Below are positions 1,342-18,363 of a stretch of DNA of 64,000 nt, piece by piece. How positions within the stretch are numbered: position 1 is the first letter of the stretch; each line of letters opens with the position of its first letter. Origin of the DNA: Candidatus Limnocylindria bacterium (GTDB lineage: Bacteria > Chloroflexota > Limnocylindria > P2-11E); assembly GCA_038227105.1 (NCBI GenBank), contig JBBRQB010000002.1:7983-71982 (forward strand), read 5' to 3'. The position numbers were made by a program, and so were the translations under genes. Under the pieces are notes generated by a model. The model saw nothing but the letters and a program-made list of their open reading frames with translations, had not been told where the DNA came from and searched no databases.

Positions 1342-4300
1342 TTAGGCTCCCTTCACCACGGGCAGCGTGACGGTGAACGTACTGCCTTTGCCCGAGGTGC
1401 TCTCGACCGTGATGGTGCCACCATGCAGCTCGACCATCCGCTTGGAGAGGGCCAGCCCGAGGCCGGTGCCCTCACGAGACTTTTCGGTCTGGTGTCCGGC
1501 CTGTGTGAACTCCTCGAAGATCCGCTCTTGGTCCTCGACGGCGATGCCGATCCCGGTGTCGTGGACGGCGAGCTGGATGTGGCCGTTCTGCTGGTCGGCG
1601 CGCAGCCGAACCGTGCCCCCGTCCGGCGTGAACTTCACGGCGTTCGCCAAGAGGTTCACCACGACCTGCTTCACCTTGCGCTCGTCGGCGACGACCTCAT
1701 CGAGCGCCGGCGCCATGTCGAGCTCGAGCTTGATCCCGTGACTCTGCGCCCGCTCTCGCACGAGGGTGACCGCGTTGTTCAACGCGGCCACGAGCGAGAA
1801 CGGCGCGAGCTCCAGCTCCATGCGACCGGCCTCGATCTTGGAGAGGTCGAGGATGTCGTTGATGAGCGTCAGCAGGTGTTTGCCGGATGAACGGATGTCC
1901 TCGAGGTAATCGGCCTGCTGATCGTTCAGCTCGCCGAACATCCGCTGCAACAGCACATCGGAGAAGCCGATGACCGCGTTCAGCGGCGTGCGGAGCTCGT
2001 GTGACATGTTGGCGAGGAACTCGCTCTTGTGCTGGTTCGCCACCTCGAGCTGCGCCGATTTCTCCTGGATCTCGTTGAACAGGCGGACGTTCTCGATGGC
2101 GATGGCCGCCTGACGAGCGAAGGATTCCACGAGGTCGATCTCGCGGTCGGTGAACGGTCGCACCTCGATGCGGACCAACACCAGGACGCCGAGCACGTCG
2201 TCACCGCGCAAGAGCGGCACGCCGATGCCGGTACGCGCACCGATCGCGACCATGCCGCGCGAATCCGCGACAGTCTCATCGGCGGTGACGTCGTGGATGT
2301 GGATCGTCCGTCGCTCGCGGAACGCCCGCCCCAGGACCGACGCGGCGTAGGTGATTTCCGCGACCGGGCCCCCCGATGTGGTGGCGTCCTCCGGTCGCCT
2401 CGACGCGACCAATTTGCCATTGCCGTCACGATCGGTCTGCCGGATCCAGCCGTACTCGGCCCGGCAGAGCGCGAGCGACTTGTCGAGCACCATCTCGAAC
2501 ACCGGCTTCAGGTCGAACGCGCTCTGGCTCATTGCCGCGAGGAGCTCCGCGGTCGCGGTCTGGCGCTCGAGCGCCTCCTGCGTCTCCCTGAAGAGTCTGA
2601 CGTTCTCCATGGCGATCGCGGCCTGTGTCGCGAAGGACTCAACGAGCTCGATGTCGCGCGTGGAGAAGGGATCTACCTCGCGCCGGCCGAGCTGGATCAC
2701 GCCGATGGGCTCACCGTCCTTCAGGATCGGTATCGCCAGCCGTGTACGGACGAGTCCCGCTTGCGCGCCCGACCGCAGCTGCTCGTCGAGTAGGACATCG
2801 GGTATGTGCACGGCCCTCCGGGTCACGACCGCTCGTTCCAGGGTGCTGGTCGCGACCGCCGGATCGAGCGTGCGTCGCACGAGGTGTGTCGCCGCATCGC
2901 GTGGCCAGTCTCCGGATGACGCGTCATAGAACCATTCGCCGCCGTCGCGCTGCCAGATGACCGCATGGTCGGCGCGGCATAGTGCGAGCGATGATTCGGC
3001 GATCGTCTGTAGCACCGGCCCGATATCGAACGCCGACCGGCTGATGACATCCAGCACGCTGCTCGTCGCGGTCTGGCGCTCAAGCGCCTCCTGCGTCTCC
3101 TTGAACAGCCGCGTGTTCGCGAGCGCGATGACCGCTTGATCCGCGAAGGTCTGCACGAGCTCGATCTGCCGCTCAGAGAACCCGCGGGGCTCGCGGCGGC
3201 GCAGGACGATCGCGCCCAGCGCCCGGCCGTCGCGCATCAACGGCGCGCTCAGGATGGCCCGCTGGCCATCCCCTCGGAGCGATATCGCCTTGCTGAGCGG
3301 ATATTCGTCGGTCGCGCGAACGTCCGCTATATGGATCGTGCGGCGCTCGACGATGGCGCGACCCGTGACGGTCAGCGAATCGATCGGCGTGCTGGTGGCC
3401 ATGTCGATCGGACCAGCATGGGCGGACGCGACTGCCTGGTCCCCTTGGACGATCATCACGGTGACGTCCTCAGCGCCTGCGAACCGCGCCGCGCTCACCG
3501 CGATCGCATCAAGGACCGGCTGGATATCGGTGGGTGATGCCGAAATGACCTTGAGAATGTCGCCGATGGCCATCTGACGCTCGAGTGCCTCACCGGTCTC
3601 GTTGAACAGCCGGGCGTTCTCGATCGCGATCACCGCCTGGTCAGCGAAGGTCTCCACGAGGGCGATCTGCTCGGCGGAGAAGGAATTCGCGCTCGTTCGC
3701 CAGAGGGCGATGACGCCGATCGATCGGCCTCCCGTGATCAACGGCACCGAAAGCAGGACCTTGAAGCCGCCGAGCCGTTTGGCGTCGGCGTAGGTGTACG
3801 TCGGGTCGGCGTCGACATCGGGGATGTGGACCGTGCGTCGCTCGGTGAACGCGCGACCCGTCGCTGAACCGAGGTTGTCGGACCTGATCGGGTTCTCGCG
3901 CTGCCATTCGCGCATGACATCCGCCCGGGGACCGAACGCCGCACTCATCGCGAGGAGCTCGCCATCAGCCCGGTAGAGGAAGCCGTTCTCCGCCTCGCTG
4001 AGGCGGGTCGCATGCGAGATGACGGTGCTCAGGAGGCCCTCGAGATCGAGGGCGGAACCGCTGATCGCCTTGAGGATCTCGCTTGTCGCGGTCTGACGTT
4101 GCAGCGACTCCTTCGTTTCGTTGAAGAGCCGGACGTTATCGAGCGCGATGACCGCTTGTGACGCGAATGTCTCGACCAGCTCCACCTCCTGCTCGCTGAA
4201 TGCACCCGGCCTGATGCGCCGCAGCTGGATCGCGCCAACGGCGCGCCCATCCTTGAGGAGTGGCGCAGCGAGGAAGCCGCGATACCCATGCTCGGCCGCG

Positions 4301-6780
4301 TACGCCTTCGCCTCGCCGAATTCGGCGTCGTCGAGGTCCTCCATGTCAGGCACGTTGTACAGGCGTCCTTCGCGGATGACGCGTCCGGTCACGAATCGAT
4401 CTGACAGCGGGAACACCTGCTTGGGTACGGCGAGCTTGCCATTGGTCGCAACGAGATCCACGTCGCCGTCCGCGCGAAGGAGGGCGACCGCGGCATCATC
4501 CGCGTTGCAGAAACGCCCGGCGCTCGCCGCGATCGTGTCGAGGACCGGTTGCACGTCGGTTGGTGAGCTCGAGATCACCTGCAGGATGTCGCTGATCGCC
4601 GTCTGTCGCTCGAGCGCCCCCTTCGTCTCGTTGAAGAGGCGCACATTTTCCAGGGCGATGACGGCCTGGTCGGCGAACGCGCGAAGCAGGTCCGCGTCTC
4701 GCTCACTGAATGCACCCGCGGTCGATCGCCGCAGCGCGATGCCGCCGATCGCGGTGCCTCCACGCAACAAGGGCGTGGCGATCGTGGCGCGGAAGCCAAA
4801 GCGACGCGACGTCTCTCGTAGCGCGGGGAATTCCGGGTCATCGAGGGTGTTCGCTGAGTGGATCGTCCGGCGCTCGAGAACGGCACGGCCCATCACGCTT
4901 GCCTGATCGGCCGGCCATAGCTCGTCCGGTCCCCGCAGCGGGATCGGCCCGTGATGCGCGCGCGTGCTGAACTGACCGTCGGCGTAGAGCGCGAGGAGCG
5001 CGTCCTCGCAGCCGCAGAACCGGACCGCATTGCGCACGATCGCGTCGAGTACCGGTTGCTGCTCGGTCGGCGAGCTCGCGATGACCTGCAGGATCTCGCC
5101 GAGCGCCGTCTGGCGCTCCAGCGACTCCCTTGTTTCGTTGAAGAGCCGCACGTTCTCGATGGCGATGACCGCCTGATCGGCGAAGGTCTCCAGTAGCGCG
5201 ATCTCCTTTTGCGAGAATGGGCGTGCGACCTCCCGGCGCGCCACGATGACCCCTATCAGCTGACCGTCGCGCGCGAGCGGCACCCCGAGGAGGGTGCTGT
5301 GCGGCGGCGCCTGTCCGGTCGCCCGCCGCTGGCCGCTGTATTCACCGTCCGCCGCCGTATCCGGGATCTGCACGCTTCGTCGTTCGAGAAGCACCCGGCC
5401 GGTCAGTGTCGCGCGCGTTGGCGCGATCGGATGCTCCTGCCAGTACGCGATGAAGTCCTCCCGGTCGGGGATCGCGCCGGCGTCCGCCAATAGGTGCGCA
5501 GCGCCGCCGTCGATGCCGAGGACGTAGGCGCTGTCGGCGCCGCAGAGCTGAACAGCGTTGTGCACGACCGCGTCGAGGACCGGAGCAACGTCCTGCACCG
5601 AGCCGCTGATCACCTTCAACAGGTCGCTCGTCGCCGTCTGCCGCTCGAGCGCTTCCTTCGTCTCGTTGAACAGGCGGACGTTCTCCATCGCGATGACGGC
5701 CTGGTCAGCGAAGGTCTCGACGAGCTTCACTTCGCTCTCACTGAACGGCTGCACCCGGTTGCGGCGTAGCAGGAAGGCGCCGATCACCACGTCGTCGCGG
5801 CGCAGCGGTACGACGAGCAGCGTGCGGGTCTCGGCCATCTCCTTCGGGATCCTGCCCAATGCGATATCCGTGGCGGACGTGGCCGCGTAGTACTCGTGCA
5901 GGCGGGTATCGGCGATATGGACGGAGCGCTTCGTCTTCAGCATCTGACCCATCCCGCTTTTCGGCGAGATCGGCGTCAAGGCGGGATCGAGCTGCTCCAC
6001 GGTCGAGCTCGCGACATTGCTGCGCATGCGACCGTCGATGCGGCTCACGGTCGCGTTGTCGGCTCCACAGATCCGCGCCGCACGCCCGGCGAGCATGCGG
6101 AGGATCGCGTCCAGATCGAACGCGGACCGGCTGATCGCCCGAAGCACATCCGCGGTCGCGGACTGCTGGTCGAGCGCCTCCCTCGTTTCTTTGAGGAGCC
6201 GCGCGTTCGCCATCGCGACCGCGAGCTGATCGGCGAACGTCTCGACGAGCGCGATCGTCCCCGGTTCGAAGCCACCCGGATCGTTGCGCGAGGTCAGGAT
6301 CACCCCGATCGTCTCGCCCCCGTGACGGACCGGCACGGCGAGCCGCGTCCGACGCCGTTCGGCGTCATGTAGCTTCGGCTCGGCGAGGATCGTGTCCGCG
6401 TAGTGGAACCGTTGACCGCTGAGGGCGGCGCGACCAAAGATCGTGCCGGGATCCGCTGTCACGCGGTCGCCGGGCTTCCCCGGAGCCTGCCCGTACGTCG
6501 CGGCAAGGACGTAGCCGTCCACGTCGCGCCGGATGAATCCGCCGTTGTCGGAGCCCGCGAGGCGGACCACAGCTCTCACGACCATATCCGCGACCGTGTC
6601 GATCTCCACCGTGGGATCGGCGAGGGCCCGCATCACGGCGCTCACGGCGTCCAGCTGCTTTCGCGCGTCGTCGCGCACCGCCGCCGCCGGCTTTGTCGAC
6701 GCCGTCAGCTTCTTGAGGGGCGCGGCCTTCTGTGCGGCGACCTTCGTGACCGCTCGCTTCCTGCCCGTCCCCGACCTCAC
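1342..6780 (-). CDS. Cytoplasmic multi-GAF sensor histidine kinase (~9 tandem GAF domains + HisKA + HATPase_c)
   Basis: ORF track 1812 aa. The linker motif [23 protein letters not shown] recurs 8 times between ~165-aa GAF units. C-terminus has [17 protein letters not shown] (H-box) and [18 protein letters not shown] (G2 box). No TM segments. GTG start at 6780 is 1 bp from the divergent neighbour's ATG, so the true start may be the GTG at 6678. Confidence 0.85.
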
Positions 6781-6781
6781 G

Positions 6782-8965
6782 ATGTGCGCAAGTATCGGCG
6801 CGCCGCAATACCCTTGCGCCGCGGGAGGGTGCTTGGATATCTGGCAGATCCTGCGCGACCGGCTCGACTACGCGTCGTTCGTCCCGACCCCGCTTCCCGA
6901 CGTGGAACGCGCCGATCTCCGGCGTCGCGACGGCTCGCCCTATTCGGTGCTGAAGAACCAGCGTGGGGACAAGGGCGCGGGCCGGTATCTGCGGCTCGAT
7001 GTGGCCGATGTCCAGCTCTACGAGCTGATGGATGGACAGCGTTCGATCCAGGACATCCTCATGGCGCACGTCGAGCGCAACGGCGTCTTCGCGCTGGATC
7101 GCCTGGCGCGCCTCACGGCGCAGCTCAGGGCGAACGGCTTCTTCGGCGAGGAGCCGCCGATGCTGTACGAGAAGCTGTTCGCGCGGCGCGCGATGCGCGA
7201 TCCCATCGCGCGCGCGTCGACCTTCCTCAAGCGGCTCGTCGTGTGGGACATCGCCCGGTGGTCGAACGCCGACCGCCTCGTGGACGCGGTGTACCGGCTC
7301 GGTGGCCGGCTCGCGTTCACGCGCGTCGGTGCCGTCGCGCTCGTAGCCTTCGGTCTGTACGGGCTCTGGACCTGGTTCGGTGAGGTGCGCTCACCGCGCC
7401 ATCAGCTCGCGACGATCGACGGCTCCTACGTACTGGGCATCCTCGCGCTCGTCCTCCTGCAGGTGGCGTCGATCTCGGTGCATGAGGCCGGTCACGCCCT
7501 CGCGATCCGGCACTTCGGGAGGCGCGTCCGACGCTTCGGCGTCGCGATGTATTACCTCTTCCCGTGCTTTTACGTCGACTCGACGGACATGGTCCTCGGC
7601 ACACGCGCGCAGCGGATCGTCGTGTCCCTCGCCGGGCCGTTCGCGGGCCTGACCGTCGCGTCCGCTTGCGCGCTCGTGGCGGCGGGGCAACCCGACACGC
7701 TCACCGGAAGCCTCATGTTCAAGGCCGCGAGCCTGTTCGTCTTCCAGTTCATCTTCAATCTCCTGCCGATCCTGGAGCTCGACGGCTACCACGTGCTCAC
7801 CGACGCGCTCGACGCGCCGTTCCTGCGCCAGCGGGCGCTCGGGTTCGTGCGCGGCGCGGCATTCGTGAAGCTGCGTCGTCGCGCCACATGGTCACGTGAG
7901 GAGGTCGGCCTCGCGATCTTCGGCATCACCGCGATCGTCACGTCCCTCGCGACGCTGGTGCTGTCGATCCAGCTCTGGCGTTCACGCATCGGTGTCGCAT
8001 CTCAAGAGCTCCTCGCCATCGGACCGGCGGGGATCCTCGCGCTCGCGCTGCTGGTCCTCGTCTTCGTCGGCCCGCTCGCGGTCGCGGTCATCGCGCGGGT
8101 GACCGGCACCGTGCGCACGACCGTCAACCTCGCACGCTCCCGCAGCCGCGCTGTGACCCAGCGCGAGCAGCAGGAGCGCGTCGCGATGCTCGCTCGCGTG
8201 CGATTCCTCGCGGGACTGCCAGGCCCGGCGCTCGTTGCGCTCGCGTCGCAGCTGGACATCGAGCACGCCGATGCCGGACGGACCGTGATCACCGCGGGCA
8301 GCACCGGCGACCGCTTCTACCTCGTGCGATCGGGCTCGCTGCAGGCCGTGGCCGTCGACGGCACGGTGCTCGGGACGATCTCGGCCGGAGAGGGCTTCGG
8401 CGAGCTCGCGCTGCTCGACGGAACGCCGCGGACCGCGACGGTCCAGGCCCTCGAGGACTGCGAGCTGTGGTCGCTCGACCGGCCGCACTTCCAGCGGTGG
8501 ATCCGTGACCGGTACGAGATCGCCGCGCGCATCCGCGCCGACATCGGCGCTCGGACCGCCCTCGCGGCCCTGCCGTTCTTCCGCGATCTGGAGGGCCGCG
8601 AGCTCGACGCCACTGCCGCGCGCCTGCAGGCCCGGCGGTACGAAGACGGTGACGTCGTGATCCAGGCGGGAGAAAGTGGCGGCGGCTATTACCTGATCCG
8701 CGAGGGCACGGCCGACGTGGCCCTCCCGGACGGCCGGCACGTGCGCACCCTCGGCCCCGGCGACGGCTTCGGGGAGCTCGCGCTCATCTTCGGGACGCCG
8801 CGCACGGCGACGGTCACGGCGAAGGGCCCACTGGTCGTCGGAGTGCTCGGACGGTCTGATTTCGCGGCGCTTGTAACTGCGTCAGGCGAAACGATGGGTG
8901 AATTCCGCCGCAGGACGGGCCATTATGTCGGGGCTGGCCTTGGCGGGGCCGTTGGGGGAGCGTAG
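6782..8965 (+). CDS. M50/site-2-type intramembrane metalloprotease with N-terminal PqqD/RRE-like domain and two C-terminal cyclic-nucleotide-binding domains
   Basis: ORF track frame 6533..8965. [13 protein letters not shown] (HExxH) in a hydrophobic segment plus [12 protein letters not shown] (M50 NxxPxxxxDG motif). N-terminal [53 protein letters not shown] resembles PqqD/RRE. Two cNMP-binding units ([10 protein letters not shown]...[21 protein letters not shown] and [10 protein letters not shown]...[21 protein letters not shown]). Start uncertain: ATG 6782, TTG 6833 (after GGGAGGG) or ATG 7028. Confidence 0.8.
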
Positions 8966-9181
8966 GTGGACTGTTGGACCTGTGAGCGCCCGGCACTCGC
9001 GGCATGCCGGTTCTGTGGCCGCGGCGCCTGCCGGGAGCACGCGCGGAGCCATCCCTTCGTCCTCGACGTCTTGCGTGGCACCCGGCATCAGGGGCTGCGG
9101 GCCCTCGTCGTGGAGGACGCCGTCCATTGCGGCGTCTGCCGGCCCCGGAGCGAGCCGGTCGACATGCCCGAGCTGGAATAG
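8966..9181 (+). CDS. Small Cys-rich zinc-ribbon protein (DUF2180-like pattern)
   Basis: ORF track 71 aa: MDCWTCERPALAACRFCGRGACREHA...VHCGVCRP (CxxC x10 CxxC x4 C ... CxxC). GTG start immediately after the protease TAG (8963-8965), consistent with translational coupling. Confidence 0.55.
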   Translation: MDCWTCERPALAACRFCGRGACREHARSHPFVLDVLRGTRHQGLRALVVEDAVHCGVCRPRSEPVDMPELE

Positions 9182-9303
9182 GGGAGGCGCAGTGGGGAAC
9201 GTCATCCAGAGCACGTAGCGGGCGTGCCGGCGTGTATCGAGCGGCAGGTCCGCTCGGCGCAGGCTCCCTTCAACACACACGCGGAGAAAAAGGAGCAACG
9301 GCG

Positions 9304-10278
9304 ATGGCTAGCAAGAACCTTGGCGCGGTGATCCAGCGGGCGATCAGCGACGGGGCGTTCCGTCGCCAGCTTCAGGCCGACCCGGCCGCGGCGCTCCGCG
9401 GCTTCAACCTGACACCCGACGAGATCGCGGCGGTCCGGAGCGGCGACTCGAGCCGGCTCATGTCGCTCGGTGTCGACTCGCGGATGAGCAAAGCATTCAC
9501 CGTCGGCGGCGCGGCACTCGAGAACCCGTCGCGCGCCGCGCTGAGCGACGTCTCGGGCAACACCTCGAGCGCGCTCACGGGCGACAACACCTCGGGTGCT
9601 CGCGAGGGCCTCGCCAGCGACCAGACCACCGGTGCGCGCGCCGCATCGAGCGACGGTCAGAACTCCGGCGCTCCGGCCTCAGGAGCTCGCGCCACGATCA
9701 GCGACGGCCAGACCAGCGGCTCGGTGCACGAGGGTGCGCGGGCCAGCGTCTCGGCCCCACAGGGCGACGCGTACCGCGCCGTCAACGACCCGGACAGCAG
9801 CGGTGGCTCGCGCGCCGCGATCGGCGACCCGACGGCCGCCGGCACGCACTCGAGCATCACCGCCCCACAGGGCGACGCGTATCGCGCCGTCAACGACCCG
9901 GACAGCACCGCTGGCTCGCGCGCCGCGATCGCCGACCCGACGGCCGCCGGCACGCACTCGAGCATCACCGCCCCGCAGGGCGACGCGTACCGCGCGGTCA
10001 ACGACCCGGACAACACCAGCGGGACGCGCGAGTCGGTCTCGGCACCGCAGGGCGACGCGTACCGCCCGATCCACGACCCAGACAACGACTCGGTCGCAAG
10101 CCGGATGCAGGACACGAACACCGCCCTGCCGGGCAGCGACGTGCAGCACGACCCCGGCTTCGTCGACAGCCACAGCGCGTTCGTTCCAAGCGACTCGGCC
10201 GACGCGCAGCGCGAGCTGCTCGACGCCCAGCACCACGGCGACGCCCTTGGCGACACCGGCCACGGCATCAACTCCTAG
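9304..10278 (+). CDS. Repeat protein with N-terminal nitrile-hydratase/Nif11-like leader-type domain and 36-aa tandem repeats
   Basis: ATG 9304 preceded by AAGGAG (9290-9295). The longer ORF-track start at 9004 gives Arg-rich junk and is rejected. N-terminus MASKNLGAVIQRAISDGAFRRQLQADPAAALRGFNLTPDEIAAV matches the NHLP/Nif11 leader helix pattern. Then a Ser/Gly/Ala/Asp-rich region and repeats APQGDAYRAVNDPDSxGSRAAIxDPTAAGTHSSIT. Confidence 0.7.
   Translation: MASKNLGAVIQRAISDGAFRRQLQADPAAALRGFNLTPDEIAAVRSGDSSRLMSLGVDSRMSKAFTVGGAALENPSRAALSDVSGNTSSALTGDNTSGAREGLASDQTTGARAASSDGQNSGAPASGARATISDGQTSGSVHEGARASVSAPQGDAYRAVNDPDSSGGSRAAIGDPTAAGTHSSITAPQGDAYRAVNDPDSTAGSRAAIADPTAAGTHSSITAPQGDAYRAVNDPDNTSGTRESVSAPQGDAYRPIHDPDNDSVASRMQDTNTALPGSDVQHDPGFVDSHSAFVPSDSADAQRELLDAQHHGDALGDTGHGINS
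9754..10089 (+). repeat. Tandem in-frame 108-bp (36-aa) repeats, 2 full + 2 partial copies, inside the 9304..10278 CDS
   Basis: DNA unit gccccacagggcgacgcgtaccgcgccgtcaacgacccggacagc... recurs at 9754, 9862, 9970 and 10042 (the last two truncated). Confidence 0.85.
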
Positions 10279-10341: not shown

Positions 10342-11013
10342 CTAGTAGCGGATGTCGCCCTGCAGGACGGCGCGGTCCTTCAGGGCGAGGTTGCGGCGGC
10401 CGATCTTGATCGCGCCGCGCTTCTCGAGGTCGGCGAGGACGCGGTTCACCGACACGCGGGTCGCTCCGACGAAGCCGGCGAGATCCTCCTGGGTCATGTC
10501 GATCTGATCCGTGCCCGAGGCTTCCGCGAGATCCAGCAGGCACTTCGCGACCCTCCCCGGGAGGTCCAGGAACACGAGGTCTTCCACGTGGCCGGTGCTC
10601 CGGCGGACGGTCTTCACCAGGAGCGCCAGCATCCGGCGCATCGCGTCAGGGTTCCGCTCGAGCGTCCCGATGAATTCCTGCCGCGCGAGTGCCAGCGTGT
10701 GGGTCTCGGTGATCGCCGTCACCGTGGCGGATCGCGGGCCGTCGTCGAACAGCGCGAGCTCGCCGAAGACGTCACCGCCGCGCTCGAGCGCGACCACGAC
10801 CTCGCGGCCCTGCTCGTCCGGCACGCTGACCTTCACGGTGCCCGAGGTGATCAGGAAGACCTGCCCGGCCGGGTCGTCGTTGTGGAAGATGACCTCGTCC
10901 CGTGCGAAGTGCCGCGGGCGCATCTTGCCGGCCAAGGCCAGCCGGTCCGCTGGGCTGAGACAGGCGAAGAGCGGGCTTTCACCCAGGTAGTCGGCGACCG
11001 CAGCGGTATCCAC
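10342..11013 (-). CDS. CRP/FNR family transcriptional regulator (cNMP-binding + HTH)
   Basis: ORF track 223 aa: FHNDDPAGQVFLITSGTVKV...GDVFGELALFDDGPRSATVTAITE (cNMP-binding) and C-terminal EDLAGFVGATRVSVNRVLADLEKRG (HTH). GTG start. Confidence 0.9.
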   Translation of the reverse strand: MDTAAVADYLGESPLFACLSPADRLALAGKMRPRHFARDEVIFHNDDPAGQVFLITSGTVKVSVPDEQGREVVVALERGGDVFGELALFDDGPRSATVTAITETHTLALARQEFIGTLERNPDAMRRMLALLVKTVRRSTGHVEDLVFLDLPGRVAKCLLDLAEASGTDQIDMTQEDLAGFVGATRVSVNRVLADLEKRGAIKIGRRNLALKDRAVLQGDIRY

Positions 11014-11343: not shown

Positions 11344-12282
11344 TCACCGCTGGCCAGCGAGCTCCAGGAACCGCGGCTTCACCTCGGTCATCGTCCGTTC
11401 GATCGTCTCGCGGTCGTAGGGCGGGGACATCCCGAACAGGAAGCCTTTCACGCCGATCCGGTGGTACTCGACGAGCTTCTTCGCGATCTCGTCCGGTGAC
11501 CCCAGGACCGCCGGCCGGTTCGGCGCCTCGACCTTGTTCCGCGTCGCGACCTCGCGCATGCGCTTGTCGACGTCGTTGAGGTCGTCGCGGACAAGGATGC
11601 CGCCGCCGCCGGTCGGGGCGATCTCGTTGTAGTCGCGGCCCACGTCCGCGCAGTGCTTCTTCAGCACCTCGAGTTTGTGCTTGATCACATCGGGTGTGCC
11701 GAAGCCGTGCCACCAGTCGGCGTAGCGCGCGGTGATCTTCAGCGTTACCTGCTCGCCGCCACCGCCGATGAGGATCGGCAGGCGCTTCTGGACCGGGCGG
11801 GTACCCAGCGTCGCGTCCTCGAGCTGGTAGTACTTGCCGTGGTACGTCATCGTGCCCTCGTCGAGCAGGACGCGGTTGATGCGTGTCGCCTCACGTAGCT
11901 TCGCGAGCCGGATCGCGGGCGTGTCGAAGTCGATCCCATACATCTTGTGCTCGTGCTCGTTCCAGGCCGCGCCGATGCCGAGCACCGCGCGGCCGTGGCT
12001 GATGTTGTCGAGGGTCGATGCCATGTTCGCGAGCACGGCGGGGTAGCGATACGTGTTTCCACTGACGAGCATCCCGATGAGCGGCTTCGTGGTGATCGCC
12101 GCGAGTGCGGGCAGGATCTGCCAGCCCTCGAGGTTCGGCCCCGTGATGTCGCCCATCAGCGGCACGAAGTGGTCCCAGGTCATGAGGACGTCCCACCCGG
12201 CCTGCTCGGCGAGGAGCGCGGCGTCGCGCATCTCGTCCCAGGTCGTGTACTGCGGATGGAGCTGAAGACCGAAGAACGTCAT
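11344..12282 (-). CDS. LLM-class F420-dependent oxidoreductase (luciferase-like monooxygenase family)
   Basis: ORF track 312 aa: MTFFGLQLHPQYTTWDE...DVLMTWDHFVPL...ILIGGGGE are typical LLM motifs. Confidence 0.85.
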   Translation of the reverse strand: MTFFGLQLHPQYTTWDEMRDAALLAEQAGWDVLMTWDHFVPLMGDITGPNLEGWQILPALAAITTKPLIGMLVSGNTYRYPAVLANMASTLDNISHGRAVLGIGAAWNEHEHKMYGIDFDTPAIRLAKLREATRINRVLLDEGTMTYHGKYYQLEDATLGTRPVQKRLPILIGGGGEQVTLKITARYADWWHGFGTPDVIKHKLEVLKKHCADVGRDYNEIAPTGGGGILVRDDLNDVDKRMREVATRNKVEAPNRPAVLGSPDEIAKKLVEYHRIGVKGFLFGMSPPYDRETIERTMTEVKPRFLELAGQR

Positions 12283-12302
12283 GAGCTGCCTCCGAGCGTA
12301 TA

Positions 12303-13658
12303 GTGCGGACTCCGATGGCGCTCACGAAGGATCGCACCGACGTCGCCCAGGTCCTCGCCGACACGAAAAAGCACGTCCTCGTCAACTGGTCGGCGCAGGG
12401 AAATAGTTCGCCGCTCGTCATCACCGGGGCCGAGGGCGTGTGGCTCCACTCGGGTGACCGCCGGATCCTCGATTTCAGCTCCGAGCTGGTGAACTCCAAC
12501 CTCGGGCACGGCCATCCACGTGTGGTCCGCGCGATCCAGGAGCAGGCGGCGATCCTCAACTACGTCACGCCGGCGTTCACGACCGAGGCGCAAGCGACCC
12601 TCGCGCGCATGCTCGCGGACGTGACGCCCGGCGACCTGACCCGGACGATCTTCACGACGGGCGGCACCGAGGCCAACGAGAACGCCATCAAGCTCGCTCG
12701 CCTCGCGACCGGCCGGCACAAGATCCTCACCCAGTGGCGCAGCTTCCATGGCCAGACGCAGGGCGCGATGACGCTCGGCGGCGACAACCGTCGTTGGGCC
12801 AATGAGCCCGGCATCACCGGCGTGGTCCATTTCCTGAATCCCGATCCCTACCGCTCGCTCTTCGGCGACGACGCGCAGAAGGCGCTCGCGCACGTCGAGG
12901 AGGTCATCTGGTACGAGGGTCCGCAGTACATCGCGGCGATCCTGGTGGAGCCGATCGTCGGCACATCTGGCCTGCTCGTGCCGCCGGATGGATTCCTTCA
13001 GGGCCTGCGGACCCTATGCGACAAGCACGGCATCCTCCTCGTGTTCGACGAGGTCATGACCGGGTTCGGCCGGACCGGGAAGTGGTTCGCCGCGGAGCAC
13101 TGGAACGTGGCGCCGGACATCATGACCTTCGCGAAGGGCGTGACCTCGGGCTACGTCCCGCTCGGCGGCGCGATCGTGAACGAGCGCGTCGCGAAGCACT
13201 TCGACCAGAACGTCTACTGGGGCGGGTTGACCTACAGCGGTCACGCCCTCGCGTGCGCCGCCGGCATCGCGACGCTTGAGACGTACGAGAGCGAGGGATT
13301 GATCGGGAACTCCGACAAGATGGGCGACCTCCTCGGCCGCGAGCTCAAGGCGCTCGCCCAGAAGCATCCGTCGATCGGCGACGTCCGCGGGCGCGGACTC
13401 TTCTGGGGTATCGAGCTCGTGAAGGACCGCGGCACCAAGGAGATGCTCGAGCAGTGGAACGGTCCCTCGAGCGCGCTCGCGAACGCGCTCAAGGCCGCGC
13501 TGTTCAAGCGCGACGTGTATGTCTTCTGCCGCTGGAACATGCTGTTCGTCGCGCCTCCGCTCATCGTGACCGAAGACGAGCTGCGCATCGGCATCCGCGC
13601 CATCGATGAAGCGCTCGAGATCGCCGACCGCTACGCCAGCACGGGGAAGCTCGAATAG
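12303..13658 (+). CDS. Class III (omega-) aminotransferase, PLP-dependent
   Basis: ORF track 451 aa: SELVNSNLGHGHPRVVRAIQEQ...LVFDEVMTGFGRTGKWFA...TFAKGVTSGYVPLG (class III signature; the GFGRTG region). Confidence 0.85.
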   Translation: MRTPMALTKDRTDVAQVLADTKKHVLVNWSAQGNSSPLVITGAEGVWLHSGDRRILDFSSELVNSNLGHGHPRVVRAIQEQAAILNYVTPAFTTEAQATLARMLADVTPGDLTRTIFTTGGTEANENAIKLARLATGRHKILTQWRSFHGQTQGAMTLGGDNRRWANEPGITGVVHFLNPDPYRSLFGDDAQKALAHVEEVIWYEGPQYIAAILVEPIVGTSGLLVPPDGFLQGLRTLCDKHGILLVFDEVMTGFGRTGKWFAAEHWNVAPDIMTFAKGVTSGYVPLGGAIVNERVAKHFDQNVYWGGLTYSGHALACAAGIATLETYESEGLIGNSDKMGDLLGRELKALAQKHPSIGDVRGRGLFWGIELVKDRGTKEMLEQWNGPSSALANALKAALFKRDVYVFCRWNMLFVAPPLIVTEDELRIGIRAIDEALEIADRYASTGKLE

Positions 13659-13744
13659 CCGCCAGCGCCTCGCGGGTCCACTGGGGCATCAACCTGCCGG
13701 CACAGCACACCACCTGGCCCGAGCTCCGGGACACCGCGCTCCTC

Positions 13745-14611
13745 GTGGACCGCCTCGGCTTCGACTCGCTCTTCACCTGGGACCACTTCGTGCCGCTCGA
13801 CGGCGATCCGAAGGGACCGATGTTCGAGGCCTGGGAGCTGCTGGCAGCGTGGGCGGCGGTGACGAAGACGGTGCGCCTGGGGACGCTCGTCACCGGAAAC
13901 ACGTACCGGCACCCGCCCGTGCTCGCGAAAATGGCGGCGACGTTGGATCACGTGTCCGAGGGCCGCGCGATCCTCGGCCTCGGCGCCGCATGGCACGAGG
14001 CCGAGCACGCGATGTACGGCATCCCGTTCCCGAGCACGGGTGGCCGCCTCGCGCGGATGGACGAGGCTGCGCGCGTGCTCCGAATGCTGCTCGATGACCG
14101 CTCCTCCTCCTTTGAGGGCAAGCACTACCGGTTGAAGGACGCGGTCGCCGAGCCGAAGCCGGTGCAGAAGCGCCTGCCGATCCTCATCGGCGGTGGCGGC
14201 GAGCAGAAGACCCTACGGACCGTCGCGCGCTATGCCGACTACTGGCACGGCCACGGTGACCCCGCGGTGATCCGGCACAAGCTCGACGTGCTCGCGGCGC
14301 ACTGCGCCGAGATCGGGCGCGACGTCGCGGAGATCACGCCGCTCACGACGGTCCGGCCGGACCTGATCCTGCGTGACCGGAGGGCCGACGTCGAGGCGCA
14401 GCTCGAGCGCGTCCGGGTCCGCTCCCGCGCCACGGAGCCGCTCGCGATGAATGAGATCCACACGGTCGACGCGCTCGTGGAACGCTGCGCCGCGCTTTGG
14501 GCCGCAGGAGCACGCGGCTTCATCCTGTACGTCAAGGCGCCGTTCGACCACGAGACGATCGAGCGCATCGCGAACGAGGCCCGGCCGCGGCTCGAGGAGG
14601 TGATCGCATGA
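13745..14611 (+). CDS. LLM-class F420-dependent oxidoreductase (second paralog); N-terminus probably extends upstream
   Basis: ORF track 288 aa from GTG 13745. In-frame upstream translation (~13673..13744) RVHWGINLPAQHTTWPELRDTALLVDRL aligns with the N-terminus of the first LLM (MTFFGLQLHPQYTTWDEMRDAALLAEQ) but holds no ATG/GTG/TTG. Confidence 0.8.
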   Translation: MDRLGFDSLFTWDHFVPLDGDPKGPMFEAWELLAAWAAVTKTVRLGTLVTGNTYRHPPVLAKMAATLDHVSEGRAILGLGAAWHEAEHAMYGIPFPSTGGRLARMDEAARVLRMLLDDRSSSFEGKHYRLKDAVAEPKPVQKRLPILIGGGGEQKTLRTVARYADYWHGHGDPAVIRHKLDVLAAHCAEIGRDVAEITPLTTVRPDLILRDRRADVEAQLERVRVRSRATEPLAMNEIHTVDALVERCAALWAAGARGFILYVKAPFDHETIERIANEARPRLEEVIA

Positions 14612-15825
14612 CGACCGCCGTTCGCGCGACCACGCTCATCGACGGAACGGGCGCGGACCCGTCGCGCGGACGGTTCATCGTCATCGAGGATGGCGTGATC
14701 ACCAGGGTCGCCTCGGACGCGCCGAAGGGCGCCGAGATCATCGACACGGGTGATCTGACGATCCTTCCCGGGCTCATCGACTGCCACGTCCATCTCGCCG
14801 TAAGCCAGTGGAACCTGGAGCAGCGCCTATCGACCCCGAACAGTCTGAACGTCGCCATGGCTCTGGTGAACTCGCGCACGACCCTCGAGGCAGGCTTCAC
14901 GACGGTTCGCGACGCGGGCTTCACGACGCGCGGTGTGAAGATGGCCGTCGACCGCGGGATCTTTCCGGGGCCCCGCATGCGCATCGCGGTCGCGCCTCTC
15001 TCGCAGACGGGCGGTCATGGTGACTCGGTGATGCCATCCGGGGTGAACACCTGGCCCGCTGATCCCGAGAGGCCCTACGGCGTCGTCGACGGCGTGGACA
15101 GCGCGCGGCGCGTGACCCGCGAAATGCTGCGCGCCGGCGCGGACCAGATCAAGGTCATGACCTCAGGTGGGGTCATGTCCCCGAACGACGAGCCGACGGC
15201 GACCGGGTTCTCGCCCGAGGAGATCGCGGCCATCGTGTACGAGGCGCACGCCGCGGGCAAGACGGTGATGTCGCATGCGCAAGCGACCCAGGGCATCAAG
15301 AACGCCGTGTTCGCGGGCATCGAGTCGATCGAGCACGGCATCTACCTCGACGAGGAGGCGTGCGCGGAAATGAAGAGACGCGGCACGTACCTCGTGGCCA
15401 CGCTCATCGCGCCCATGTGGGTGCTTCGCCGCGCGGAGAAGGATCCGTCAGCGGTGCCGCCGTATGCGGTGCGAAAGTCCAAGGAGGTCATCGATGCCCA
15501 TCGGCAGTCGTTCCGGATGGCCGTCGAGTCCGGCGTCAAGATCGCTATGGGCACCGACACTGGTGTGGGGCCGCACGGCACGAACGCCGAGGAGCTCGCG
15601 GTCATGGTCGAGAACGGGATGACCCCGATGCAGGCGATCGTGGCCACGACGAAGACCGCCGCGGAGTGTGCGCGCGTCGACACGCTCGTCGGCACCATCG
15701 CGGCCGGCAAGCGCGCCGACATCATCGGCGTACGCGGCGATCCGCTCGCGAACATCGGCCTGTTCAAGGACCCGGCGTCCGTCGCGTTCGTGATGAAGGA
15801 CGGCGCTATTCACAAGCGGCCGTGA
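14608..15825 (+). CDS. Metal-dependent amidohydrolase family protein
   Basis: ATG 14608 overlaps the LLM stop (ATGA) and follows GAGGAGG. MTTAVRATTLIDGTGADPSRGRFIVIEDGVITRV...LPGLIDCHVHL...AHAAGKTVMSHA...ESIEHG (amidohydrolase HxH/His/Asp motifs). Confidence 0.8.
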   Translation: MTTAVRATTLIDGTGADPSRGRFIVIEDGVITRVASDAPKGAEIIDTGDLTILPGLIDCHVHLAVSQWNLEQRLSTPNSLNVAMALVNSRTTLEAGFTTVRDAGFTTRGVKMAVDRGIFPGPRMRIAVAPLSQTGGHGDSVMPSGVNTWPADPERPYGVVDGVDSARRVTREMLRAGADQIKVMTSGGVMSPNDEPTATGFSPEEIAAIVYEAHAAGKTVMSHAQATQGIKNAVFAGIESIEHGIYLDEEACAEMKRRGTYLVATLIAPMWVLRRAEKDPSAVPPYAVRKSKEVIDAHRQSFRMAVESGVKIAMGTDTGVGPHGTNAEELAVMVENGMTPMQAIVATTKTAAECARVDTLVGTIAAGKRADIIGVRGDPLANIGLFKDPASVAFVMKDGAIHKRP

Positions 15826-16844
15826 AGAAGTGGGAGCCGCCCGCCGGCTGGAAGCGGGTCACGACGCTCGAGACGCACGCGGCGGGCGAGCCGCTGCGCA
15901 TCGTCACCGGTGGCCTCGATCCGATCCCGGGAAAGACGATCCTCGAGAAGCGCCGCTACGCGCGCGAGCATCTCGACGGGCTGCGCCGGTCGATCGTGTT
16001 CGAGCCGCGCGGCCATGCAGACATGTACGGCGCGATCCTCACCGAGCCCGTCACGCCCGACGGCGATCTTGGTGTGCTGTTCATGCACAACGAGGGCTGG
16101 AGCACGATGTGCGGTCACGGCATCATCGCGCTCACCACGGCGCTCCTGGAGACGGGTGAGCGCGCGGGCGATGTCATCCGCTACGACGCACCGCCCGGCC
16201 GCGTGACCGCGACGGCCGTCCGAGACGGCGACCGGGTCCGTGAGGTCGCGTTCGAGAATGTGCCCTCGTTCGCCGCCGCGCTGGATGAGACAGTGCGGGT
16301 GGAGGGCATCGGTGAGGTCCGGTACGACCTCGCCTTCGGTGGCGCCTTCTACGCCTTCGTCGACGCCGACGCGCTCGGCGTGCCGCTCGACGCGAGCGGC
16401 TTCCGCCACTGCATCGAGGTGGGGATGCGGATCAAGCGTGCGGTGATGGCGAACCGCGAGGTGCGGCACCCCGAGGCACCTGACTCCGCCGACCTCTCCT
16501 TCCTCTACGGGACGATCCTCACCGGCCGGGCGCACGAGCCGGGCGCCGACTCACGGAACGTGTGCGTGTTCGCCGAGGGCGAGGTGGACCGCTCGCCGAC
16601 GGGCACCGGCGTGAGCGCCCGCGTCGCCATCGAGCACGCCCGCGGAAGGCTGCGCGACGGTGCGACGTTCACCGTGGAGAGCATCATCGGGACCCGCTTC
16701 CGCGGTCGCGTGCTGCGGGAGGCGAAGGTCGGGCCACACGCCGCGGTCGTCTCGGAGGTCGCGGGCTCGGCGTGGGTCGTCGGGCGCTCGGAGCTCTGGA
16801 TCGCGCCGAACGATCCGCTTCGCGAAGGGTTCGTCCTTCGCTAG
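15822..16844 (+). CDS. Proline-racemase-family enzyme with Cys/Thr catalytic pair (trans-3-hydroxy-L-proline dehydratase type)
   Basis: GTG 15822 overlaps the amidohydrolase TGA. GHADMYGAIL, MHNEGWSTMCGHG (first catalytic Cys) and DRSPTGTGVSAR (Thr where racemases/epimerases have the second Cys). Confidence 0.75.
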   Translation: MKKWEPPAGWKRVTTLETHAAGEPLRIVTGGLDPIPGKTILEKRRYAREHLDGLRRSIVFEPRGHADMYGAILTEPVTPDGDLGVLFMHNEGWSTMCGHGIIALTTALLETGERAGDVIRYDAPPGRVTATAVRDGDRVREVAFENVPSFAAALDETVRVEGIGEVRYDLAFGGAFYAFVDADALGVPLDASGFRHCIEVGMRIKRAVMANREVRHPEAPDSADLSFLYGTILTGRAHEPGADSRNVCVFAEGEVDRSPTGTGVSARVAIEHARGRLRDGATFTVESIIGTRFRGRVLREAKVGPHAAVVSEVAGSAWVVGRSELWIAPNDPLREGFVLR

Positions 16845-17347
16845 ACGGGGATCAGGTGCCCGCTCTCCAAGAAGTAGGCCCAGCCGTCCATGTCGGGCGG
16901 CGCGATCCCGAGCTGAGTCAGGATGGCTGCGATCTGCGCGCGATGCTCGGTGCCGTGGTTGACCGCCTGCAGCATGAAGAGCGCTACGGGGATCCACCAG
17001 GTGCCCGGCGGGTCATTGCCGGTCACCTGGACCCTCCGATCCTGGTCGCCGCGCATCGCGGATCGCTCGAGCTCCGCGTTGCCGCGGTCGAGCCGCGCTG
17101 CGAGGGCCTCGAAGCCAGGGAACGGATCCTCCGGAAGACGCTCGGGCCGTTCCGTGTCCAGGAGCCGCGCCGTGTAGCTCACCTGGCCGTTCGCGAGATG
17201 GACGAGGGTGCGGCCGATGCTTCCGTACGTACCGGTCGCCGTCGCCCCCAGCTGCTCGGGCGTGAGCGTCCGGCAGGCCTCGAGCAGCCGCTGATTCATC
17301 ATCGTGTTGTGCTTGAAGAACTCGACCAGCAGCTCCGGGGTGTTCAC
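16841..17347 (-). CDS. DinB/YfiT-like (DinB_2) family protein, possibly mycothiol-dependent
   Basis: ORF track 168 aa: LLVEFFKHNTMMNQRLLEACRTLTPEQL...GSIGRTLVHLANGQ...HGTEHRAQI fits a DinB-like four-helix pattern. Confidence 0.6.
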   Translation of the reverse strand: MNTPELLVEFFKHNTMMNQRLLEACRTLTPEQLGATATGTYGSIGRTLVHLANGQVSYTARLLDTERPERLPEDPFPGFEALAARLDRGNAELERSAMRGDQDRRVQVTGNDPPGTWWIPVALFMLQAVNHGTEHRAQIAAILTQLGIAPPDMDGWAYFLESGHLIPV

Positions 17348-18363
17348 CCTGTCCCCCCCGCGAGCGCCGTGAGCCCCTTGAGCTTGGGGATGATGTCCTT
17401 CCCGTAGGCCTCGAGCTGTTCCTCCTCATCGCCGCTCATCAGGTAGAGGTTGAACTGCGTCATGCCGGCCTCCGCGAGCGCGTGGAGCTTCTCGATCTGC
17501 TCGCTCACGTCGCCCGTCACGCAGAAGCGATCCACCGACTCGTCGTCCACAAAGCCGGCGTTCGACGATCCGGACTCGGCGTGGTGCTTGTAGTCGTAGC
17601 CCGGCCGGTCGCGCACGTAGCGCGTGAGGTCCGCCGGCAGCCCCTGCTCGCCGTACCGGCGGACGAGGTCCACCACGTGGTTGCTCACGAGGGCGGGGAA
17701 CCAACGGACCCGCTCGCGGACGTCACTCTTCCGCCCGATATGCGCGGGCGCCGCGACCATCACCTGCACATCCTGCGGATCGCGCGTGGCCGCGCGCGCA
17801 CCGTCGCGGAGCAGCCCCACGCACCACCCGACCAGGCTCGGGTCGGCGAGCTGGATCACGGCGCCGTCGGCGATGCGGCCGGTGACCGCGAGCGCCTTCG
17901 GGCCGTACCCCGCGATCCACACCGGCAGGTCGTAGGGCTCGGCCCAATCGAACACGAGATCGGTGCCGTCGTACGTCACCGTGCGGCCCTCACAGAGATC
18001 GCGGATCGCGACGGTCGCCGCCTCGAGATCGTCGAGCGTGGTCGGCTTCTTCCCGAGGACGCGGCGCGCCGAATCGCCGCGGCCGATGCCGAGGTCCATG
18101 CGGCCCTTCGAGAGGATCTGGAGCACCGCGAGCGCGCTCGCGGTGACCGAGGGCTCGCGGGTCGCGGGGTTCGTGACGCAGGTCCCGAGCCGGAGCTTCG
18201 TGCTGTTCTGCGCCATCAGCGTCAGCAGCACGTACGGCTCCTTCCAGAGGACGTGGCTGTCGAAGACCCAGCCGTGCGTGAAGCCCGCGTGCTCGGCGAG
18301 CTTCGTCAGCGAGACGACGCGCTCGAGCGAGTGGTCCGGCTTGAGCGTGAACCCGAAGTCCAT
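17344..18363 (-). CDS. LLM-class F420-dependent oxidoreductase (third paralog, Mer/FGD-like)
   Basis: ORF track 339 aa: MDFGFTLKPDHSLERVVSLTKLAEHAGFTHGWVFDSHVLW...IAGYGPKAL...CVTGDVSEQIEKL. Confidence 0.8.
   Translation of the reverse strand: MDFGFTLKPDHSLERVVSLTKLAEHAGFTHGWVFDSHVLWKEPYVLLTLMAQNSTKLRLGTCVTNPATREPSVTASALAVLQILSKGRMDLGIGRGDSARRVLGKKPTTLDDLEAATVAIRDLCEGRTVTYDGTDLVFDWAEPYDLPVWIAGYGPKALAVTGRIADGAVIQLADPSLVGWCVGLLRDGARAATRDPQDVQVMVAAPAHIGRKSDVRERVRWFPALVSNHVVDLVRRYGEQGLPADLTRYVRDRPGYDYKHHAESGSSNAGFVDDESVDRFCVTGDVSEQIEKLHALAEAGMTQFNLYLMSGDEEEQLEAYGKDIIPKLKGLTALAGGTG

Follow-up and report, generated by a model that had tools for sequence, protein, structure and literature searches.

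A predicted RRE-containing M50 protease with tandem cyclic nucleotide-binding domains and its conserved gene neighbors in Candidatus Limnocylindria

Domain architecture of the protease

The DNA analyzed here was a 64,000-nucleotide (nt) stretch, referred to below as the window, of contig JBBRQB010000002.1 from a Candidatus Limnocylindria bacterium (assembly GCA_038227105.1, positions 7,983 to 71,982 of the forward strand), with a G+C content of about 70%. It carried a gene for a predicted membrane protease that combined an N-terminal RiPP recognition element (RRE; RiPP, peptide that is ribosomally synthesized and then post-translationally modified), an M50/site-2 protease core, and two cyclic nucleotide monophosphate (cNMP)-binding domains. 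The gene occupied positions 6833 to 8965 of the forward strand, where an uninterrupted open reading frame (ORF) with a TTG start codon and a stop at 8965 encoded 710 amino acids (aa); residue numbers refer to this 710-aa protein throughout. An earlier note on this DNA had started the gene at an ATG at position 6782, which in translation yielded a 727-aa ORF. That start was probably 51 nt too far upstream. The TTG at 6833 was more likely to be the true start because a Shine-Dalgarno sequence (GGGAGGG, positions 6823 to 6829) lay ahead of it, because the protease was 710 aa long in every public gene call and homolog, and because the ATG at 6782 abutted a divergent kinase gene whose own start was at 6780. 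Exact and near-exact matches to the protease came from Candidatus Limnocylindria (phylum Chloroflexota) metagenome-assembled genomes. In the copies of the family that were inspected, the annotation was generic only (for instance, "cyclic nucleotide-binding domain-containing protein" and also "hypothetical protein"). An AlphaFold2 model of the full-length protein had a predicted local distance difference test (pLDDT) score of 82.

The M50/site-2 membrane core (positions 7319 to 8107, forward strand) matched Pfam Peptidase_M50 (PF02163) with 44.1 bits (cutoff, 27.2), and hydropathy analysis indicated six membrane segments. The HEAGH metal-binding motif (residues 217 to 221, positions 7481 to 7495) fell in the second segment and the other M50 motif, NxxPxxxxDG (residues 309 to 319, positions 7757 to 7789), fell in the fourth; both motifs were invariant among homologs. 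The site-2 protease of M. jannaschii (3b4r) was the only solved structure with a sequence match to the core (E of 0.013), and the alignment spanned both motifs. The motifs and the Pfam match supported the assignment to the M50/site-2 proteases, in agreement with the earlier note, which had recognized an HExxH motif inside a transmembrane helix and the NxxPxxxxDG motif. The same note had called the enzyme SpoIVFB-type, with cNMP-binding domains in place of CBS, and this part of the description was not supported: a CBS domain was absent, a PDB search gave no significant match to SpoIVFB, and the closest named families were RiPP site-2 proteases. Because an even number of helices (six) separated the RRE from the cNMP-binding domains, both were predicted to lie on the cytoplasmic side of the membrane.

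The RRE, a PqqD-like domain, covered residues 25 to 100 (positions 6905 to 7132, forward strand). An AlphaFold2 model of this region (70 sequences) had pLDDT values of 91 to 98 across residues 11 to 100, and it predicted a sheet of three strands (residues 25 to 30, 36 to 42, and 51 to 55) followed by three helices (residues 57 to 64, 72 to 83, and 88 to 100), a fold that was superposable on known RREs. Pfam PqqD (PF05402) did not match the window protein significantly (E of 0.2; 12.5 bits versus a cutoff of 23.4); among distant family members, 7 of 49 matched PqqD at an E of 1e-3 or lower, with a best value of 2.9e-5. When a profile of the domain was compared to the PDB, PaaA (E of 0.04), PqqD (0.12), and TfuB1 (0.44) were the only non-spurious matches. 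The matches in relatives, the PDB profile matches, and the predicted fold supported the assignment of this region as an RRE. The PqqD/RRE-like domain proposed in the earlier note was therefore backed by the fold prediction, which did not point to an unrelated fold.

The two cNMP-binding domains followed the membrane core at positions 8222 to 8536 (residues ~464 to 568) and 8594 to 8926 (residues ~588 to 698) of the forward strand. Pfam cNMP_binding (PF00027) matched twice, with 139 bits (cutoff, 27.5), and each domain contained a phosphate-binding cassette of the form FGELAL..PRTAT. In homologs down to 32% identity, the cassette Glu and Arg of domain 1 were invariant; in domain 2, E648 was invariant and R657 was at least 90% conserved. 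The earlier identification of two cNMP-binding domains with the GELAL...R-T-A cassette was thus upheld by Pfam scores above the cutoff and by the retention of Glu and Arg in both domains.

The three-part architecture proposed in that note also recurred outside the window, as database and genome searches recovered it from Limnocylindria, Anaerolineae, other Chloroflexota, and Actinomycetota. The module made up of the RRE and the M50 core was found in 9,814 representative clusters at 50% identity, 3,227 of them at an E of less than 1e-10, and it aligned over its full length in proteins of roughly 450, 720, and 1,100 aa. Two cNMP-binding domains were present in 85 of the best 150 of these cluster matches. 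A large sister class (P0125, P0126, P0128, P0134, and some 50 further representatives, each 1000 aa or longer) also carried the RRE and M50 module and two C-terminal cNMP-binding domains, together with an insert of about 400 aa (residues ~450 to 840) that had no Pfam match. One family member had an FHA domain instead.

Genes adjoining the protease

A GTG codon immediately following the protease stop codon started the gene for a 71-aa Cys/His-rich, putatively zinc-binding protein (positions 8966 to 9181, forward strand), referred to here as the zinc protein. Its matches to Pfam DUF2180 (PF09947; 17.6 bits versus a cutoff of 22.2) and to C5HCH were weak. Weak DUF2180 matches were found in 16 of 18 members of this protein group (best, 2e-4), and weak C5HCH matches in all 18. 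The invariant residues were C3, W4, C14, F16, C17, G18, R19, C22, H25, C55, G56, and C58. The ORF was under-called in public annotation; at the L001 locus (positions 12134 to 12346), for example, only a 40-aa C-terminal fragment had been called.

About 340 nt downstream of the protease and two genes on, a gene at positions 9304 to 10278 of the forward strand, with the ribosome-binding site AAGGAG, encoded a 324-aa precursor-like protein of the NHLP clan (Os1348/Frankia_peptide). The first ~63 residues formed a helical N-domain (positions 9304 to 9492) that matched the NCBIfam model NF038399, "Os1348 family NHLP clan protein," with 63.3 to 64.3 bits against a cutoff of 40, and that matched the Os1348 crystal structure (6lk7) in the PDB at 1.4e-4. 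Pfam Frankia_peptide matched the window protein weakly (34 versus a cutoff of 48) and was recorded in homologous loci. The N-domain ended in the motif D-x-R-x-S-K (positions 9475 to 9492), which marked a conserved boundary with the tail. Specifically, the N-domain ended in L-x-S-L-G-V-D-x-R-x-S-K in all lineages, with R found in 62, S in 63, and K in 61 of 63 sequences, and beyond this junction the sequences of all lineages diverged completely. In an exact-sequence look-up, neither the zinc protein nor the NHLP-like protein of the window was present in the protein collection.

The tail of the window protein was 261 aa long, acidic, rich in repeats, and devoid of Cys and Lys. It contained four copies of the peptide repeat R[AP][IV][NH]D, and Tandem Repeats Finder identified a 108-bp tandem repeat within it (positions 9754 to 10017, forward strand; 2.4 copies, 94% matches) that encoded ..SAPQGDAYRAVNDPD.. 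units. Limnocylindria tails were 110 to 470 residues long and consisted of clade-specific arrays of short repeats with variable ends. The repeats included DAYRAVNDPD in four copies in the window, VRAGDDWKFA in five copies at L028, and EPRDSxPVWxGD in four copies at L062; acidic repeat tails lacking Cys and Lys were also seen at L001, L028, L031, L060, L062, and L064. Multi-core precursors, disordered acidic proteins, and proteins that bind metal are possible identities of such tails. In distant loci, the tails were 6 to 20 residues long, as in LCICDF, LKMEDGEGFPFHS, and LDNPPLPGEAQEGAFGPWS. The C-terminal residue of the precursor-like proteins was S, P, Q, or E.

The remaining neighbors were mainly regulatory. 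A gene for a CRP-family transcription factor (Pfam cNMP_binding and HTH_Crp_2) lay at positions 10342 to 11013 on the reverse strand, convergent with the cassette. On the other side and divergent from the protease, a reverse-strand gene at positions 1342 to 6780 encoded a 1812-aa histidine kinase with nine consecutive GAF domains (Pfam GAF nine times, HisKA, and HATPase_c). It was followed on the same strand by genes for a single-domain response regulator (positions 964 to 1341; Pfam Response_reg) and a fusion of a response regulator to a class III nucleotide cyclase (positions 2 to 967; Pfam Response_reg and Guanylate_cyc), the latter of which was incomplete at the window start. An unusually large sensor kinase thus headed an operon that ended in a response regulator-cyclase fusion. 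The L001 locus had the same divergent kinase arrangement and a complete, 370-aa homolog of the response regulator-cyclase protein. No CRP box (TGTGA-N6-TCACA, up to two mismatches) was found near the cassette; the window as a whole contained 7, compared to 10.6 expected.

Beyond the CRP gene, positions 11344 to 14611 contained a class III aminotransferase gene flanked by two luciferase-like monooxygenase genes. Both enzyme types are also found in daptide clusters. We rejected these genes as candidate tailoring enzymes, as they were syntenic in only a subset of close relatives and were absent from distant loci.

Conservation of the gene set and a model for its function

With moderate confidence, we propose that the enzyme is an RRE-dependent intramembrane site-2/M50 protease under second-messenger control and that its substrate is the NHLP-clan protein, whose gene lies two genes downstream. 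The domain architecture, the integrity of the motifs, the predicted fold, and the linkage of the genes across lineages were established directly. The earlier note had suggested that fusing an RRE to an intramembrane protease would couple leader recognition to cleavage and that the cNMP-binding domains would gate it. This idea was strengthened by the precursor, cyclase, and CRP genes in the neighborhood, which the note had not covered, and by the tandem precursor copies and ATP-grasp genes of some related loci; cleavage and gating are treated below as predicted steps.

To place the window among its relatives, species-representative genomes were scanned with a 10-sequence alignment, which yielded 441 related stretches. 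Of these, 79 were analyzed with locally built hidden Markov models (HMMs), together with seven loci from contig look-ups, and the fractions given below count only loci with enough flanking sequence. Loci with 55 to 87% protease identity are referred to as Limnocylindria-type and those with 32 to 36% as distant; the distant loci came from Anaerolineae, other Chloroflexota, and Actinomycetota. The NHLP-like gene was located within 1.5 kb downstream of the protease in 40 of 41 Limnocylindria-type loci and was found in 7 of 17 distant loci, and five Limnocylindria-type loci had two or three tandem copies. The CRP gene was convergent and within 3.5 kb downstream in 23 of 23 Limnocylindria-type loci and was co-directional in six Actinomycetota loci. 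Of 62 Limnocylindria loci, 17 had a response regulator-cyclase gene upstream, which was divergent in 10 of them and directly co-directional in the other 7; in distant loci, its presence was not systematic. Hence, a link to cyclic nucleotides was seen as a cyclase upstream in two arrangements and a CRP-family gene in three.

Other arrangements were observed in more remote lineages. In L086, an intermediate lineage with 46% identity, the CRP, protease, zinc protein, and Frankia_peptide genes formed a single co-directional operon. In L004 (35% protease identity), an 82-aa Frankia_peptide gene was located immediately upstream of the protease. The occurrence of the same genes in varied orders and orientations argued that they were functionally linked, as opposed to sharing inherited synteny. 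This bears on the simplest alternative, namely that a housekeeping site-2 protease with decorative domains happens to lie among unrelated neighbors. We considered such fortuitous synteny very improbable, as the gene set was kept in different orders and orientations from Limnocylindria to Actinomycetota, over a range of 32 to 87% protease identity.

Several loci had features of their own. Five contigs binned as Saccharimonadales, Thermoanaerobaculia, or Acidiferrales (L014, L016, L024, L047, and L054) carried protease genes with 59 to 77% identity; they were probably mis-binned Limnocylindria because the same cassette was present wherever the flank sufficed. On the reverse strand of the Anaerolineae contig L071 (positions 14788 to 18013), about 5 kb from the first set, was a second NHLP-like gene with a zinc protein gene and a CRP-like ORF. 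This ORF matched the CRP-family protein of the window at an E of 5e-20 and had at least a cNMP-binding domain, and the second set is possibly a paralog of the cassette. In one distant Chloroflexota lineage, the cassette was flanked by two further conserved genes, both on the reverse strand in L004 and with equivalents in L005 and L006: a gene for a ~435-aa protein with a weak HEAT_2 match (positions 8069 to 9382) and a gene for a ~130-aa protein with no match (positions 12509 to 12910).

The zinc protein gene was the most constant neighbor of the protease; it adjoined the 3' end of the protease gene in all 51 Limnocylindria-type loci and was present in 14 of 17 distant loci. In the six Actinomycetota loci, the protease occurred with the zinc protein and CRP genes, and a search by regular expression and HMM found no NHLP-like ORF. 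Because there were loci with the protease and the zinc protein and no detectable NHLP-like gene, the precursor was not a universal neighbor and the zinc protein nearly was. Along with the zinc protein start directly after the protease stop and the CRP gene that overlapped the protease start in L086, these findings are in line with a different function, in which the protease is a cNMP-controlled switch for regulated intramembrane proteolysis. Its client would be the zinc protein or another regulator (for example, one that modulates the CRP factor), its RRE would bind the conserved C-terminal ..EPVDxPELE of the zinc protein, and the NHLP-like protein would be an accessory output or a lineage-specific addition. 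We regarded this function as unlikely. The zinc protein lacked a membrane segment and did not resemble anti-sigma factors, and no sigma factor was found near the protease. Furthermore, the closest named protease families were RiPP leader or scaffold peptidases, and the NHLP-like gene was linked to the protease in three phylogenetically separate groups, with an ATP-grasp gene in some.

The ATP-grasp genes were of the RimK-like type and occurred in five Anaerolineae-type loci, where they were positioned between a 71- to 78-aa precursor gene and the protease gene (L071, positions 6974 to 7903, Pfam RimK at 9e-18; also L069, L072, L073, and L077). This location next to a short precursor suggests real peptide modification in the Anaerolineae-type branch. 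RimK-type amidoligases extend C-termini, and the short tails in the ATP-grasp loci were conserved (..EDGE.FPFHS). One could therefore picture a pearlin-like scaffold, in which amino acids would be added to the C-terminus of the NHLP-like protein, by the RimK-like ATP-grasp enzyme where present, and the M50 protease would release the C-terminal product with no leader being removed. The M50 proteases TglG and TmoG do cut C-terminal residues from scaffold peptides (PMC10885120). This explanation was improbable in our judgment: no ATP-grasp gene was found in the window or any Limnocylindria locus, the long Limnocylindria tails had variable ends, and the invariant motif was located at the junction of the N-domain and tail, not at the C-terminus.

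The layout of the NHLP-like proteins themselves was that of leader-core precursors because a conserved recognition domain and an invariant junction were followed by a hypervariable C-terminal part and because the genes occurred in tandem copies. Gene linkage shows partnership and does not show which protein is the substrate, and SpoIVFB is controlled by co-encoded inhibitory proteins. By analogy to BofA and SpoIVFA, the NHLP-like protein or the zinc protein might be an inhibitor or regulatory ligand that occupies the RRE uncut, with the true substrate encoded elsewhere. We gave this proposal little weight, as multiple tandem, fast-diverging copies in which a conserved N-domain is joined to a hypervariable tail point to a substrate or precursor and not to an inhibitor.

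Based on these comparisons, we favor processing of the NHLP-clan protein, which might proceed as follows. The cytoplasmic RRE would dock the conserved ~63-residue N-domain of the precursor, and the zinc site in the membrane would cut near the D-x-R-x-S-K junction, parting the N-domain from the variable tail. The tail released in this way would be a 261-aa acidic repeat polypeptide in the window and a 6- to 20-aa peptide in distant relatives. Binding of cyclic AMP (cAMP) or cyclic GMP (cGMP) to the two cNMP-binding domains would switch the protease on or off by gating its access or activity, a role that the neighboring cyclase and CRP genes support. The nucleotide would come from the neighboring pathway of GAF kinase, response regulator, and response regulator-cyclase, and the adjacent CRP-family regulator would read the same nucleotide in parallel. 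The 71-aa zinc protein would act as an obligatory partner, perhaps as an adaptor, an inhibitor, or a substrate chaperone.

A number of points weigh against this model. Cleavage, binding, and nucleotide gating are predictions from sequence, and the placement of the cut at the junction motif is a guess from conservation. RREs usually bind an extended leader segment, and the NHLP-like N-domain is instead helical and folded. The long, acidic, repeat-rich tails did not resemble classical RiPP cores and were atypical of precursors. In addition, only 17 of the 62 Limnocylindria loci had the cyclase next to the protease, no NHLP-like gene was detected within ~1.5 kb of the protease in L005, in the six Actinomycetota loci, or in a few further loci, and no conserved tailoring enzyme was found in the Limnocylindria loci.

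A broader proposal, which we advance tentatively and consider somewhat doubtful, concerns the four-gene module of a CRP-type regulator, the RRE-M50-cNMP protease, the DUF2180-like zinc protein, and at least one NHLP-clan protein. This module might be an undescribed signaling output in which a cyclic nucleotide, produced at the command of a two-component system, directly licenses an intramembrane protease to free a product from its recognition domain. This product would be a peptide or, in the case of Limnocylindria, a long, multi-repeat acidic polypeptide that is possibly a precursor with multiple cores. In such a system, a second messenger would control the maturation of ribosomal peptides post-translationally, and the zinc protein would represent a new class of obligatory co-factor. 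If the cNMP-binding domains do gate cleavage, they would act as a switch through which a second messenger directly controls an intramembrane protease, and they would offer a new way of timing the maturation of ribosomal peptides or proteins in soil Chloroflexota that are abundant but uncultured. In addition, DUF2180-like zinc proteins and long-tailed Os1348/Frankia_peptide proteins gain partners from the cassette that can be tested.

Comparison with known systems

SpoIVFB is an M50B site-2 protease that carries a nucleotide-sensing CBS domain at its C-terminus, and its substrate approaches from the cytoplasmic side. The window protein is predicted to share this logic, in that a nucleotide-sensor domain after the M50 core would face the cytoplasm and the substrate would arrive from there. 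It differed in having no CBS domain and an additional RRE, and no significant match to SpoIVFB was found in the PDB search. A precedent for cNMP-binding domains alongside bacteriocin-type peptide systems was TIGR03896, "bacteriocin-type transport-associated protein." The similarity to this family was in the cNMP-binding region (2e-10; 40.5 bits versus a cutoff of 161), and TIGR03896 is not a protease.

In the case of the precursor-like protein, the N-domain belonged to the same family as Os1348 of Pseudomonas sp. Os17 and Frankia_peptide. ECOD groups the Os1348/Frankia_peptide domains with NHLP/Nif11/LigA-like leaders (PMC12353581). Os1348 is an 85-aa protein whose gene is clustered with genes for a GNAT protein, an HEXXH protein, and a SagB dehydrogenase (PMC7726476); its cluster has no M50-cNMP protease, and the window protein adds the 261-aa acidic repeat tail.

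Among dedicated peptidases, EpeP/YydH and TglG/TmoG are membrane M50 enzymes devoted to ribosomal peptide maturation (PMC10885120), the latter acting as carboxypeptidases on the scaffold peptides of pearlin systems. The EpeP/YydH-LiaK model (NF058609) matched the window protease at 8.7e-19. However, the match was confined to the catalytic region (residues 220 to 343), and its score of 68.1 bits was below the cutoff of 225, so we did not assign the protein to the YydH/LiaK epipeptide proteases. None of the EpeP/YydH, LiaK, or TglG/TmoG proteases is known to carry a cNMP-binding domain.

Neither an RRE-M50-cNMP protein nor the cassette was described in the literature covered by a full-text search, which did not extend to the study that reportedly defined the Pfam Frankia_peptide family (Iyer et al. 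2009).

The closest known relatives were the daptide proteases. Daptide clusters are defined by an RRE fused to the N-terminus of a site-2 protease, and MpaP is an RRE-dependent intramembrane peptidase (Ren et al., Nat Commun 2023, PMC10036551). Like MpaP/DapP, the window protein had an N-terminal RRE and an M50 core, was encoded beside precursor genes that can be multi-copy, and is proposed to remove a leader. Its best NCBIfam match was the daptide intramembrane metalloprotease model NF041824 (3e-37), in which residues 47 to 412 were aligned, reaching into the RRE. The score was 128.6 versus a family cutoff of 300, and the 379-position daptide model has no cNMP-binding domains. Daptide precursors have an ELExMEAP leader motif and a C-terminal Thr that is invariant, both of which were absent from the window-type NHLP-clan precursors. 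Daptide clusters also encode DapB (DUF-RRE), an oxidoreductase, an aminotransferase, and a methyltransferase. No conserved DapB, DapC, or DapM gene was present here, and the partners were the DUF2180-like zinc protein and the CRP regulator. With a score below the cutoff, the wrong precursors, no conserved Dap genes, and a nearby Aminotran_3 gene that was syntenic in only a subset of relatives, membership in the daptide family was rejected. The fusion of an RRE to a protease is thus already published, and RRE-fused site-2 proteases were recognized only in 2023. The elements not found in the published descriptions are the built-in cNMP sensor, the invariant DUF2180-like partner, the NHLP-clan partners with long repeat tails, and the CRP/cyclase linkage, so that the present family extends this group of enzymes by a sensor for cyclic nucleotides and by a constant group of partners.

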